Assembly: GCA_035543495.1 (NCBI GenBank)
Contig: DATKJT010000045.1
Span: 11,445 to 75,444 of the forward strand
Source of the DNA: Rhizomicrobium sp.
GTDB lineage: Bacteria; Pseudomonadota; Alphaproteobacteria; Micropepsales; Micropepsaceae
Reading direction: 5' to 3'
DNA length: 64,000 bases
The position numbers and the translations under genes were made by a program. A model generated the notes under the pieces. That model was not told where the DNA came from and did not search any database. It was given only the letters and a program-made list of their open reading frames with translations. Below are positions 41,142-45,911 of this stretch, piece after piece. Every line of letters begins with the position of its first letter. Within the stretch, counting starts at the first letter, position 1.

Positions 41142-41999
41142 CTACCAGACAAGCTCACGCATCGCCGCGCGAGCATTTACCCCTGTTTTTTCAAACAGTT
41201 GCACCAAAGTCTCGGTGGTCATTTCCCCCAGCTCGGCGGCATGGATGCCGTGGGCTATGAACAGCACGTCGAATCCGATCGCATTGGCCCCCTTGAGATC
41301 GGTCTCCATCGCATCGCCTACCGCGAGCACCCGCGTGATGGTCCGCCGCGTCGCCCGGCGCATGGTCTCCAGCGCCAGATCGTAGATCGCCGGATACGGC
41401 TTGCCGAAATAAACGACTTCGCCCTCGATCTTTTCATAGGCGCGTGCAAGTGCGCCCGCGCAATAGACAAGCTGCCCGCCGCGCTGCACCACCTGATCGG
41501 GATTGGCGCACAGCATCGTCAGTTCTTTTTCCTTCAGCTTCGCCAGCAGTTCCGCGTAGTCATCCGGCGTCTCGTGATCGTCGTGATAAAGTCCGGTGCA
41601 CAGCACGATCTCCGCCTGATCGGCTTCCACACTCGCGACGTTCAAACCCTCGAACACGTCGCAGTCCCGCTCCGGTCCCAGATGCAGCATGGCAAGCGTC
41701 TTGTCCCGCGTCCGCCAGAGAAGATCGTCCCGCGCCGCCACGCCCGACGTCACCACCGCATCGAAACAATCGAGCGGCACGCCAATGGTCTCGAACTGTT
41801 TCATCAGAGTCGGTACCAGCCGCGGCGCATTGGAAAGCAGAACCACCGGCCCGCGATCCGCGCGGAATTTCCTCAGCGCGTCCGCCGCCGCCAGAAACGG
41901 CTCTTTCCCGTTATGCAACACACCCCACACGTCGCAAACAAGCGCATCGTATTCGCCCGCGATGTCGGAAAGGCCGGAGATGATACGGATGTCGTCCAT
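41142..41999 (-). CDS. TIGR01459 HAD-superfamily hydrolase (class IIA)
   Basis: CDVWGVLH, LSNAPR, CANPD, GKPY, VGDAMETD. Confidence 0.92.
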   Translation of the reverse strand: MDDIRIISGLSDIAGEYDALVCDVWGVLHNGKEPFLAAADALRKFRADRGPVVLLSNAPRLVPTLMKQFETIGVPLDCFDAVVTSGVAARDDLLWRTRDKTLAMLHLGPERDCDVFEGLNVASVEADQAEIVLCTGLYHDDHETPDDYAELLAKLKEKELTMLCANPDQVVQRGGQLVYCAGALARAYEKIEGEVVYFGKPYPAIYDLALETMRRATRRTITRVLAVGDAMETDLKGANAIGFDVLFIAHGIHAAELGEMTTETLVQLFEKTGVNARAAMRELVW

Positions 42000-42048
42000 G
42001 TGTCACGCCGTAGCCGATGGCGCGCAAAGCCTCAAGGGGAGGCGGGTT

Positions 42049-44058
42049 CTAAAGTTTGGCCGTCAACGAGAATCGCACTTCGCGCGGCTCGGCCGGATGG
42101 GTGTGGATGTCGTCCACACCGCCCGCCGGCTCGCCGGGAAGCCGGGAGGTGTAATAATAATCGATGTCGCTGACCGATGCATCGAGCAGGTTGAACACGC
42201 TCACCCCAACCGTCCAGCGTTCGTCGATCGCATAGCCCAGATCGGCATAGAGCAGGGTGGTCGATTTGGATTGTATCGCATTGTCCTGCGTCAAAGGCCG
42301 CGGCCCGAAATAGCGAAGCCGCAATCCCGCCGTCCAAGGCCCCAGATCGTGCAGCGCGACACCGCCATCGAATGTCGCCACCAGCGCTTCCGGAACATAG
42401 GGACCGTCCGGCTCGTAATCGGTGAATCGCGAATGCGACCAAGCATAATCCGCATCGATCGTCAGCCACGGCGTCGGCGTGTAGAAATTCGCAAGCTCGA
42501 TGCCGTAGCGCCGCGTGGGCCCGCTCGGCTCCGTCGTGCCTTCGTCGCCCGCCCAGGTAAGCTCCGACGCAATGTCCAGCATCCAGAACGACACCGAACT
42601 CTGCAGCCCCGGAAAGATTTCCGTTCGCGCGCCGATCTCCGCGCCTCTTGCGCGCGCCAGCGGTGTCGCCGGATCGACGGTCGCCACCACGCCGCGTGCA
42701 TCGTTGCTGTGAAAACCATAACCCGCATTCAGATAGAATTCCGTCTGCGCCCATGGCCCGAACACCATCGCAAGTTTCGGGCTGAATTGCGCCGCCGTCA
42801 CATCGCCGGAATTTCCGCCTACGATGTTGTCGACGCCGAAACGAAACACATCCTCCCGCGCGCCCAAGGTGGTGCGGAACCATGACGTCCACTTGGCGCG
42901 GCTTTCAAAGGTGATCGCGCCGCTCGTCTCGTCGATGCTGTTTATGGTGCGCGGTTCGAGCCGCATGCGCTGCTCGGTATGGAACAGTCCGTTGTGAATG
43001 AAGTCGCTGCGGAAATCCGCACCCACCGTGTTGTCGATCTCCGTTCCGAACAGACTGCCCGACCATTCGTGCGTGGTGTTGCCGCCCAGCATGTAACGGT
43101 GATCCTGCTGCTCGATCTGGTCGCCATGCACCGGATCGTCGAGGAAGTAGGTGAAATCGGAAAACAGGTCGAGGTCGTAATAGAGCCCGTAGACCTTGGC
43201 TTGCGTCGCGTCATCCGCCGAATGCCACCCTGCCGTCAGCGCATAGCGTCCCGTCTTGCCGCCGTCGGATGTGTCGAGCGAGCCCCAGCGGTCGATCAGC
43301 CCGTCATCGATGGCGCGGTCCGCCACCTGGTCGGTCGAATTCCAGATGTTGTGATAGCCGCTGGCGGTGATGGTCCATGCACCGGCTGTGTACCGCAGCA
43401 ACCCGTCGAACTTTCGCTCGTCGTCGGGATTGTCCCACGGTCCGTTGTTGTGTTCGAACTCCATCGCATAGATCAGATTGCCGTCCGCGACCGCCGCATT
43501 GTTGGCGATCAACCCGCGCGCATAACCGAACTGCCCGCCTTCCAGCTTCACAAGCCCGTTGGGCAGTACATCGTAATAATGAATGTCGATCGCGCCCGCC
43601 GCACCGAAGTCTCCGACATCGGCGTAGTAGGGGCCTTTCTTGTAGTCCACCCGCTCCACAAGCTCCGGGATCAGCATGTTGAGATCGGAATACCCCTGCC
43701 CGTGCGCATGGCTCACCATGTTGACCGGCACATCGTCGAGGTTCACCGAAATGTCGGTGCCATGATCGAGATTGAACCCGCGCAGGAAATACTGGTTGGC
43801 CTTGCCGCTGCCCGAATGCTGCGTGATGATAACGCCGGGAATGTTCTCCACGATTTCACCGGGCCTCAGCAACGGACGCAACGCAAGGTCCGCCGCGCTC
43901 ACGCTGCCTTGATTGGCGGAATCGGCGATCCCTTCCAGATTGGCCGCCCGTCCCGTCACGGTCACCGTTTCGATGCTCGCATCCTGGCTGGCGAACGCGC
44001 TGGCGCCCGATAGTGTGCCGGCCAAAGCGGCTGCCGCAAAACATCCTCTCCGAACCAA
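42049..44058 (-). CDS. TonB-dependent receptor, probable nickel (or cobalt) transporter
   Basis: Signal peptide, TonB box ETVTVTG, plug QHSGSGKANQYFLRGF...HAHGQGY, RVDYKKGPY; TTG start with GGGAGG; NikR box upstream. Confidence 0.9.
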   Translation of the reverse strand: MVRRGCFAAAALAGTLSGASAFASQDASIETVTVTGRAANLEGIADSANQGSVSAADLALRPLLRPGEIVENIPGVIITQHSGSGKANQYFLRGFNLDHGTDISVNLDDVPVNMVSHAHGQGYSDLNMLIPELVERVDYKKGPYYADVGDFGAAGAIDIHYYDVLPNGLVKLEGGQFGYARGLIANNAAVADGNLIYAMEFEHNNGPWDNPDDERKFDGLLRYTAGAWTITASGYHNIWNSTDQVADRAIDDGLIDRWGSLDTSDGGKTGRYALTAGWHSADDATQAKVYGLYYDLDLFSDFTYFLDDPVHGDQIEQQDHRYMLGGNTTHEWSGSLFGTEIDNTVGADFRSDFIHNGLFHTEQRMRLEPRTINSIDETSGAITFESRAKWTSWFRTTLGAREDVFRFGVDNIVGGNSGDVTAAQFSPKLAMVFGPWAQTEFYLNAGYGFHSNDARGVVATVDPATPLARARGAEIGARTEIFPGLQSSVSFWMLDIASELTWAGDEGTTEPSGPTRRYGIELANFYTPTPWLTIDADYAWSHSRFTDYEPDGPYVPEALVATFDGGVALHDLGPWTAGLRLRYFGPRPLTQDNAIQSKSTTLLYADLGYAIDERWTVGVSVFNLLDASVSDIDYYYTSRLPGEPAGGVDDIHTHPAEPREVRFSLTAKL

Positions 44059-44076
44059 GGTATGCCCTCCCGCCGG

Positions 44077-44104
44077 GTATGATGATTATCCAAATTCATC
44101 ATAC
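44077..44104. promoter_or_regulatory. NikR operator
   Basis: GTATGA-N16-TCATAC (extends to GTATGATGA-N10-TCATCATAC), identical to the E. coli NikR consensus, 19 bp upstream of the receptor start. Confidence 0.9.
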
Positions 44105-44243
44105 ACCTTAATGGCGGATCGGCCGATGTAAAGCGGAATCCTATTCCGATCTGAATAGCTCCCATACCGGTTTGGCATGGTCTATCAAAAGGGTAATGTG
44201 TTCGCGATAAATATCGCATCGGTACAGGGCAGGAGTTTCGGCA

Positions 44244-44651
44244 ATGCAGCGCGTGACCATCGTTCTCGACGACGAACTGGCGGAAGAAATCGATGGGCTG
44301 GTCGCGCGCCGCGGCTACCAGAACCGTTCGGAGGCCATCCGCGATCTTGCGCGCTCCGGCCTGCGGGAAGCGCAGGAAGAAGATCAGTCGAAAGGCAAAC
44401 GGGTCGCCGCGCTATCTTATGTTTACAACCACCACTCCCGCGATCTCGCCAAACGCCTGACCGAGGCGTTCCACGATCATCACGCGAGCACGGTGGCCTC
44501 GATGCACGTCCATCTCGACCACGAAAACTGTCTTGAAGTCAGCATCCTCAAAGGGCCTGCAAAGATCCTGCGCCAGATCGGCGGCAAGGTGATCGCCGAA
44601 CGCGGCGTCCAGCACGGCCGCCTCGCCATGTATCCGGTGAAAGAGGACTGA
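44244..44651 (+). CDS. nikR: Nickel-responsive regulator NikR
   Basis: MQRVTIVLD ribbon, NRSEAIRD, YVYNHH, HDHH, MHVHLDHENCLEV Ni ligands. Confidence 0.95.
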   Translation: MQRVTIVLDDELAEEIDGLVARRGYQNRSEAIRDLARSGLREAQEEDQSKGKRVAALSYVYNHHSRDLAKRLTEAFHDHHASTVASMHVHLDHENCLEVSILKGPAKILRQIGGKVIAERGVQHGRLAMYPVKED

Positions 44652-44654
44652 ACC

Positions 44655-45911
44655 TTATCCTGCTTTGCGCAGGGGAATGATCGCTGCCGGCCCCTGCGGC
44701 CGTTCGGCGGAAGGCGTTTCCTTCAGCACTTCGTCGCGCACCGCGCGCGGTTCGCCGAACAGATAGCCTTGCGCGAAATCCACGCCGTATTCGAGCAGTT
44801 GCACGACGGTCTTTTCGTCTTCCACGCGCTCGGCAATCAGGTTCAACCCGTGGCGCTGGAGCAATTCCTTGAAATCCTGCGCCGAAACCATCGCCCTGGC
44901 ATCGCCCATTCCACCCACAAGCGTGGACGCCCGCACCTTGATGTGGCGGAAGCCCAGCCGCTTCAGCTTGGCGAAGTCGAGCGCCAGCGTTTCGACGTGA
45001 TCGAGCGACAACGCAAAGCCGAGCCCGGAGAGATAGGAGAGGTTGGTTTCGCCTTCCGCACCCGCCTTGTCGATCGCATCCTGCGAAAATTCGAACACGA
45101 TCCGCCCCGCCAGGTCGCGGTTGTGGTGCATGTATTCGAGGAATTGCGGAAAGAACTCCGGATCGGTCAGCGTATCGCCCGCGATGTTGCAGAAGATCGC
45201 GATCTCGCGGTTCTTCTGCGTCAACCGGCGCATCACCTGCACGCAACGGAACAGCAGCAGATTGTCCACCACGCTCATCAAACCGGCCGGTGCCGCGATG
45301 CGCATATATTGCGCTGGCATGATGACGGTGCCGTCTTCGGCGCGCAACCGCGACAGCGCTTCGTAATAACGCAGTTTCCGCTGCGGCAAACTGACTGTCG
45401 GCTGCAGGTAAAGGTCGACGCGGTTCTGCTCCAGCGAGGTGCGCACCATTTCCAAAAGCGTGGAATCGGCCAGCGCGTTGAAACCCGCCCGTTGCGGCGC
45501 CGCCAGCGCGGCCGGTTTGACCTGCGCAGGAATCTCTTTCGCCTTGTTGGAAATGCGATGCGCGAACTCCCGCATCAGCCCTTCGAGCATCTGCAGTTCG
45601 GCCACGATCTTGCGGTTGTTCTCGTTCGTCTTGGTTTCCACGATCTGCGTGATCTCAGCGATCTTGCCGCTCGTCTCGTCGATCGATTTCTGAAACGAAA
45701 GTCCCGCGGTCTTCAACATGCGAATGTCGTTGGCGGTGCGCGTCTTGTCCCGGCGGCGCAGGAAGCTCGCGTGAATCTGCCCGCAAAGAACGGTGGCGAT
45801 GAACGTCATCATCAACGCTTGCGACATCGGCCATCCCAGCCACATGCCGGTCGCACCCGCCGCCAGCGCGCAAACCGTCGCGTAGGTCATCACGATGAGA
45901 ATGTTGAGCAT
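44655..45911 (-). CDS. tipF: Membrane-anchored degenerate EAL protein, TipF-like
   Basis: Two N-terminal TM helices, coiled coil, QP..SL...YEALSRL, DHV in place of DDFGTG, AERVE, QGYLF; CtrA box upstream. Confidence 0.65.
   Translation of the reverse strand: MLNILIVMTYATVCALAAGATGMWLGWPMSQALMMTFIATVLCGQIHASFLRRRDKTRTANDIRMLKTAGLSFQKSIDETSGKIAEITQIVETKTNENNRKIVAELQMLEGLMREFAHRISNKAKEIPAQVKPAALAAPQRAGFNALADSTLLEMVRTSLEQNRVDLYLQPTVSLPQRKLRYYEALSRLRAEDGTVIMPAQYMRIAAPAGLMSVVDNLLLFRCVQVMRRLTQKNREIAIFCNIAGDTLTDPEFFPQFLEYMHHNRDLAGRIVFEFSQDAIDKAGAEGETNLSYLSGLGFALSLDHVETLALDFAKLKRLGFRHIKVRASTLVGGMGDARAMVSAQDFKELLQRHGLNLIAERVEDEKTVVQLLEYGVDFAQGYLFGEPRAVRDEVLKETPSAERPQGPAAIIPLRKAG

Follow-up and report, generated by a model that had tools for sequence, protein, structure and literature searches.

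A 64,000-nucleotide stretch of the Rhizomicrobium sp. contig DATKJT010000045.1, here called the window, carries a gene for the regulator NikR and, divergent from it, a gene for a TonB-dependent receptor, with a NikR operator in the intergenic region. The question raised by this locus is whether the receptor is an outer-membrane nickel importer under the control of NikR, as a sequence-only reading of the window had proposed. We consider it very probable that the two genes form a nickel-acquisition unit in which NikR represses an outer-membrane nickel receptor. This view draws on the operator, on a NikR protein that is intact and keeps its nickel ligands, on the architecture of the receptor, on the association of the receptor family with nikR and with NicO and HupE permeases in other bacteria, and on the lack of other nickel importers in the genome.

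The intergenic region contains an exact E. coli-type NikR operator, GTATGA-N16-TCATAC, at positions 44077-44104. A pattern search found it once in the window, with no mismatch, and never in 100 dinucleotide-preserving shuffles, which bears out the reported presence of a perfect operator between the receptor gene (42049-44058, minus strand) and nikR (44244-44651, plus strand). Read directly, the inverted repeat has 9-bp arms, GTATGATGA-N10-TCATCATAC, longer than the 6-bp arms first reported. On the receptor strand the operator ends 5 nt before the Shine-Dalgarno sequence and 18 nt before the TTG start codon, so that the receptor transcript must start inside or upstream of it; the ATG of nikR lies 140 bp away, on the opposite strand. 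The search for other NikR boxes, named in the sequence-only reading as a check, covered the whole source genome (3.47 Mb in 73 contigs, 100% complete by marker genes). The site at 44077-44104 was the sole N16 site with 0 or 1 mismatch, and consequently the predicted NikR regulon would consist of a single operator. N16 sites with two mismatches numbered 21 per strand against 12 for a control pattern, and are mostly due to chance. When spacings of N14 to N17 were scanned across the genome with at most one mismatch, no further site appeared except one N14 site with one mismatch on another contig (C15).

The nikR gene, present in one copy in the genome, encodes a protein of 135 aa with a ribbon-helix-helix domain (PF01402, E 8.4e-10) followed by the ACT-like nickel-binding C-terminal domain (NikR_C, PF08753, E 8.6e-29), and its scores exceed the cut-offs of both NikR equivalog models (NF002815, 190.7 bits against 83; TIGR02793, 177.4 against 175.45). 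Its alignment with E. coli NikR (1q5v, E 2.4e-38) covers the protein from one end to the other. In this alignment H77, H88, H90 and C96 correspond to the E. coli nickel ligands H76, H87, H89 and C95; all four ligands of the high-affinity, square-planar nickel site are kept, and the recognition strand MQRVTI at the N-terminus is identical to that of E. coli. Direct reading places a Shine-Dalgarno sequence, AGGAG (44231-44235, plus strand), 8 nt before the ATG. Another small palindrome, GCGATA-aa-TATCGC (44204-44217), precedes the nikR start codon by about 30 bp; it may belong to the nikR promoter or be bound by a different regulator.

The association between this type of receptor and nikR extends far beyond the window. 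In a scan of one genome per species we found at least 598 members of the receptor family, in Alpha-, Beta- and Gammaproteobacteria, Acidobacteriota, Verrucomicrobiota, Planctomycetota and others; homologues with 60-78% identity are common in Alphaproteobacteria, all with generic annotation. The best 80 family loci from other genomes were analyzed together with the window (81 loci in all) by clustering the neighbouring open reading frames (ORFs) and by building a tree of the 81 proteins. The commonest neighbour was nikR, found within 4 kb in 21 of the 81 loci, followed by HupE_UreJ_2 permeases (14), DUF4331 proteins (10), ABC ATPases (7), extracytoplasmic function (ECF) sigma factors (7) and NicO permeases (5). 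In 14 of the 21 nikR-linked loci a NikR box with at most one mismatch was found just upstream of the receptor or of a NicO-receptor pair, and boxes were present in family loci of Bradyrhizobium, Dechloromonas, Methylophilus, Nitrosomonas and others. In Dechloromonas denitrificans, for example, the genes for NikR, a histidine kinase, NicO and the receptor are consecutive, and the box, of N15 spacing, is exact (L055). Three further loci have boxes and no nearby nikR: those of Bradyrhizobium betae and B. uaiense (L071 and L090), with exact N16 boxes, and L011, with one mismatch. The spacing was N16 in alphaproteobacteria, N15 in most betaproteobacterial loci and N14 in one locus (L024). The nikR-linked receptors do not form a single clade, since their distribution on the tree requires 15 changes; therefore the link with nickel is a property of the whole family and not of one subfamily.

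This distribution bears on one objection, namely that the operator is fortuitous, or serves nikR only, and that the receptor is an ordinary one for an iron siderophore or another nutrient. Its best partial NCBIfam match is indeed a generic siderophore-receptor subfamily (74.8 bits against a cut-off of 223.5), and some database sources label its homologues 'Fe transport'. However, nikR adjacency and NikR boxes recur across phyla, and the operator, unique in the genome, is much closer to the receptor start than to nikR. We regard this explanation as very improbable indeed. The finding of nikR beside the family in so many loci, with boxes upstream, and of the same pair in four congeneric genomes (see below), supports instead the proposal of a NikR-controlled outer-membrane nickel importer.

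The locus would then work as follows. When cytoplasmic nickel is sufficient, nickel-loaded NikR tetramers would occupy the single operator and switch off transcription of the receptor gene, by promoter occlusion or as a roadblock; autoregulation of nikR, which lies 140 bp off on the opposite strand, is possible. Under nickel scarcity the receptor would be made; it would capture nickel at the surface of the cell and bring it into the periplasm with energy from one of the TonB systems of the genome. As the form captured we favour the bare ion or a small labile complex, held by a cluster of conserved histidines, and a HupE/UreJ-type permease encoded on another contig (C61) would probably carry nickel across the inner membrane.

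The receptor has 669 aa and matches the Plug and TonB_dep_Rec_b-barrel models. Its TTG start, already noted from the letters alone, is supported by a Shine-Dalgarno sequence, GGGAGG, 7 nt upstream (44066-44071, direct reading of the minus strand). From the translation, residues 1-23 (43990-44058, minus strand) are a signal peptide with probable cleavage after AFA and before SQD, and residues 30-36, ETVTVTG (43951-43971, minus strand), are a TonB box, aligned with residues 8-12 of the BtuB chain (LVVTA), which we take to be part of the BtuB Ton box. Six TonB_C genes score above the cut-off in a profile search of the genome. The AlphaFold2 (AF2) model, with a predicted local distance difference test (pLDDT) score of 86.8 and a predicted template modelling (TM) score of 0.87, has a plug and a 22-strand barrel; residues 1-35 have pLDDT values below 50. 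In a Foldseek search with this model, FecA, PqqU, YncD and FoxA gave TM scores of 0.75-0.79 with identities of 17% or less, and OprC was also among the fold matches, so that the model resembles solved TonB-dependent transporters only generically. By sequence, no solved structure was found within the receptor's own family, the best matches being the barrel of YncD/PqqU and the plug of BtuB. The sequence-only reading had kept cobalamin as an alternative ligand; this loses ground, as the BtuB models score far below their cut-offs (TIGR01779, 27.4 bits against 599.7; NF007926, 24.6 against 836) and an Rfam search of the window returned one tRNA as its single match, with no riboswitch or other element near the locus.

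Among the histidines of the receptor, H81, H99, H119 and H450 are invariant in the 81 family proteins, and H654 (79 of 81), H652 (77) and H117 (73) are nearly so. Two of the three plug positions concerned fall in regions shared with BtuB, H81 and H99 aligning with N57 and H75 of that protein, and the third in an insertion: the plug loop SHAHGQG (residues 116-122; 43693-43713, minus strand), read from the translation and from the alignments to BtuB and YncD, contains the triplet HAH (117-119) that corresponds to a three-residue gap in both, located between G89 and V90 in BtuB. We take the BtuB loops at these three positions to be plug tips facing the substrate pocket, a lead and not a test. In the barrel, DSSP analysis of the model places H450 at the end of strand 13, at loop 7, and H652 and H654, within DDIHTHP (residues 649-655; 42094-42114, minus strand), in the upper half of the last strand; strands 648-655 and 660-668 follow the hairpin loop 640-647. 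Both histidine motifs pointed out earlier are thus confirmed, and, from the plug-tip alignment together with the DSSP placement, all seven conserved histidines would lie on the extracellular side. Cysteine is absent from the mature protein.

Such a set of residues may also be read in another way: the receptor would import nickel bound in an organic complex instead of the bare ion, with Ni-(His)2 or an opine-type metallophore as examples of the nickelophore, and the histidines would contact the complex or have a structural role. Chelates are the cargo of most TonB-dependent receptors, FecA and PqqU, the nearest receptors by fold, carry small chelates, and a review on cable bacteria cites nickel-siderophore uptake through TonB-dependent receptors (PMC11247825). 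On the other hand, neither a metallophore biosynthesis gene nor a periplasmic binding protein/ABC system is found beside the receptor or recurrently beside the family, whose recurrent partners are the ion permeases NicO and HupE/UreJ, and the genome has no NikA orthologue; the alignment of the seven histidines with plug-loop positions of BtuB and with the extracellular ends of the barrel also suits direct coordination of a metal. We therefore consider uptake of a nickelophore rather unlikely, and favour capture of nickel as the ion or a small labile complex. As a tentative extension, which we would not yet rate as an even chance, the family as a whole might consist of direct Ni2+/Co2+ ion receptors with a seven-histidine pocket that pass the ion to a HupE_UreJ_2 permease; the pocket may be made by H81, H99 and H117/H119 on three plug tips, by H450 on loop 7, and by H652/H654 near the upper end of the last strand. 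Under the same tentative proposal, NikR would control nickel entry here solely at the outer membrane, and the presence of one recognisable nickel enzyme, a glyoxalase I, would hint at an unrecognised need for nickel.

Within Rhizomicrobium, nikR was found in 7 of the 61 genomes sampled, and the divergent arrangement of nikR, box and receptor in four congeners (G045, G066, G012 and G008). Two of their boxes are exact (L112 and L115) and the other two have one (L114) and two (L113) mismatches. None of these four congeners shares the genes that flank the pair in the window, and the box is the sole non-coding feature that recurs in all four aligned intergenic regions, although in G066 it lies elsewhere, nearer nikR. 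Because of this the nikR-receptor pair behaves as a self-contained and patchily distributed unit, and the GC content at the locus showed no sign of recent import. The neighbours in the window are genes for a HAD hydrolase, MaoC, RibF, TetR, an EAL protein and an SDR; no nickel gene was found among them, as the sequence-only reading had stated. In a further congener, G075, nikR is divergent from a gene for a NicO-like permease, with a box carrying two mismatches (L110, C1:408500-418500), and a family receptor is encoded about 14 kb away behind a box with one mismatch. In two of the congeners, where nikR and an exact box adjoin the receptor, tblastn recovered the receptor as 2-3 pieces (L112:2647-4639 in G066; L115:3822-5820 in G012), which could reflect a frameshift, a pseudogene or an assembly error in a metagenome-assembled genome.

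An outer-membrane receptor requires an inner-membrane partner, and this was expected to lie elsewhere in the genome. No NiCoT/NicO, CbiM or NikA orthologue was found in the genome, and the search led to C61:25213-28353 (L008:7213-10353), where a peptidyl-prolyl isomerase gene is followed by three tandem genes of the HupE/UreJ family, the first of them HupE_UreJ_2, one canonical and one weak. The HupE_UreJ_2 protein is 39-43% identical, in full-length matches, to the permeases found beside family receptors in other bacteria. Furthermore, HupE_UreJ_2 is present in all five Rhizomicrobium genomes with the nikR-receptor pair, and in G008 it is located 7 kb from the pair, on the same contig. From these similarities the C61 cluster is the likely inner-membrane partner. 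As to the use of the metal, contig C42 encodes a glyoxalase I of 146 aa whose nearest matches are short-type enzymes such as E. coli GlxI (1f9z). We take these to belong to the nickel-activated class, and the C42 protein has none of the additional segments that mark the human type. No other candidate nickel user is recognisable in the genome. The glyoxalase gene and one of the six TonB_C genes are about 1 kb apart (C42:46550-48172; L092, L120), a proximity that is probably a coincidence.

Several observations weigh against the proposed nickel unit. A scan of positions 41900-44800 for sigma-70 consensus promoters placed none, so that the occlusion geometry is something we infer; by hand, two -10-like hexamers can be read within the operator, TATGAT (44098-44103) and GATAAT (44085-44090), with no convincing -35. 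The invariance of H99 and H119 is partly built in, because the two peptide patterns with which the loci were retrieved include both residues; the other five histidines are independent of the search. The HupE cluster on C61 is unlinked to the receptor and has no NikR box, no riboswitch and no urease or hydrogenase gene nearby. HupE_UreJ_2 is present as well in nine congeners that lack nikR, and genomes so related do not count as independent samples, so that its co-occurrence with the pair is a lead and not a proof. The demand for nickel appears thin, since no urease, NiFe hydrogenase, ARD or LarA was found in the genome; a search for nickel superoxide dismutase also gave no match there, and, having no positive control, it is uninformative. 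Finally, cobalamin riboswitches are found directly upstream of the receptor gene in three family loci (L028:353-878, in tandem; L063:3647-3864; L088:3631-3835), and these members keep essentially the same histidines, with the exception of H654 in L028, from which it follows that the family is not exclusive for nickel.

This last point is the basis for a reading in which the substrate is cobalt, or cobalt and nickel alike, and control by NikR is a matter of cross-talk. The receptors of this group have in addition been labelled 'Nickel, Cobalt' in the cluster listing of PMC3400609. The copy in the window, however, has a NikR operator and no riboswitch, this operator is only 18 nt from the start codon, and the NikR protein keeps the square-planar nickel ligands, which makes cobalt, alone or on a par with nickel, an improbable substrate here and leaves nickel as the substrate we would predict, with repression that would depend on it. 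On the tree, L088 is sister to the Bradyrhizobium clade with NikR boxes, and regulation by nickel and by B12/cobalt therefore switches among close relatives.

Some family members are found in other recurrent arrangements. One is a cluster of genes for a DUF4331 protein of about 500 aa, a small ORF, a TPR protein and HupE_UreJ_2, often with an ECF sigma factor, beside receptors in nine loci (L018, L022, L039, L042, as in L042:3-3830, L050, L085, L021, L057 and L058). In the literature searched we found no mention of DUF4331, and the cluster looks like an unstudied metal-uptake cassette. In L021 (3386-4000), L023, L040, L053 and L065 a same-frame ORF upstream of the receptor has a signal peptide and a mature N-terminus similar to that of HupE (AHTGS..GW.NGF.HP), and may represent either a fusion or a small gene of its own. 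Acidobacterial members have an N-terminal extension similar to CarboxypepD_reg.

The family has been recognized before. According to the papers that cite them, Rodionov et al. (2006) predicted Bll6948 and Daro_3944 by comparative genomics as NikR-regulated receptors (PMC3400609, PMC7142613, PMC11247825); NikR sites and B12 riboswitches were what first pointed to the family. The founders, Bll6948 and Daro_3944 as predicted nickel receptors and Daro_1684 as a predicted cobalt receptor, were grouped as cluster 987, 'Nickel, Cobalt', in PMC3400609; Table 1 of PMC7142613 marks them as predicted ('Pr'), and they are listed among nickel receptors in PMC11247825. The proteins of B. betae, B. uaiense and D. 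denitrificans are members of our family, at 45-48% identity, and share the plug motifs, and our receptor would belong to the nickel/cobalt family of Bll6948, Daro_3944 and Daro_1684, the putative orthology with the founders being deduced from these congeneric species. Consequently, of the suggestion that the receptor defines an uncharacterised clade, the experimental part stands, as no experimental study of any family member was found in the literature searched, but the clade is not an unrecognised one. A nickel transcriptome of Sphingobium describes nickel-induced receptors without NikR, and what is given there has no bearing on this receptor family (PMC5557971).

The locus is thus an ordinary member of a family known by prediction, with a pair that is real and conserved, and it leaves current understanding unchanged. 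Its interest is that of a tidy minimal model with a few testable details. Very few receptors, essentially those of Helicobacter, have been shown to carry nickel across the outer membrane, and this large family from environmental bacteria has been a prediction since 2006. The locus has a single repressor, a single perfect operator and a single receptor, and no other nickel importer competes with it, which makes it about as clean a test case as can be had; the conserved histidines are clear targets for mutagenesis, and the link with HupE_UreJ_2 suggests the second step of the pathway.

Comparison with known systems defines what is shared and what is particular to this locus. The receptors predicted by Rodionov et al. 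in Bradyrhizobium (Bll6948) and Dechloromonas (Daro_3944), together with Rgel01002199, have an E. coli-type NikR box upstream, as here, and cluster 987 also includes members regulated by cobalt/B12, as does the family that we examined; in contrast to them, the window has a bare divergent nikR-receptor pair, with no permease alongside, that is the only NikR target in its genome. ZnuD of Neisseria, for zinc, and OprC of Pseudomonas, for copper, which bind the metal as a bare ion, with conserved metal-ligand residues on the plug tip and on the barrel wall, offer a possible analogy, although the receptor has no specific sequence relation to either and its putative ligand set is all histidine. With the NikR-nikABCDE system of E. 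coli the locus shares the nickel ligands, the recognition strand, the operator half-sites and their spacing, whereas the target there is an ABC importer and here an outer-membrane receptor. In Helicobacter pylori, FrpB4 and FecA3 are repressed by NikR, and nickel uptake by FrpB4 through TonB/ExbB/ExbD has been shown. The logic would be the same in both bacteria, with nickel-loaded NikR repressing an outer-membrane TonB-dependent nickel importer and the inner-membrane step encoded elsewhere. The clusters of the literature set the two receptors apart, FrpB4 being listed in the haem-type cluster 1856 and not in 987 (PMC3400609), and the operators also differ, that of H. pylori NikR being different and looser, whereas the operator here is the exact E. 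coli consensus.

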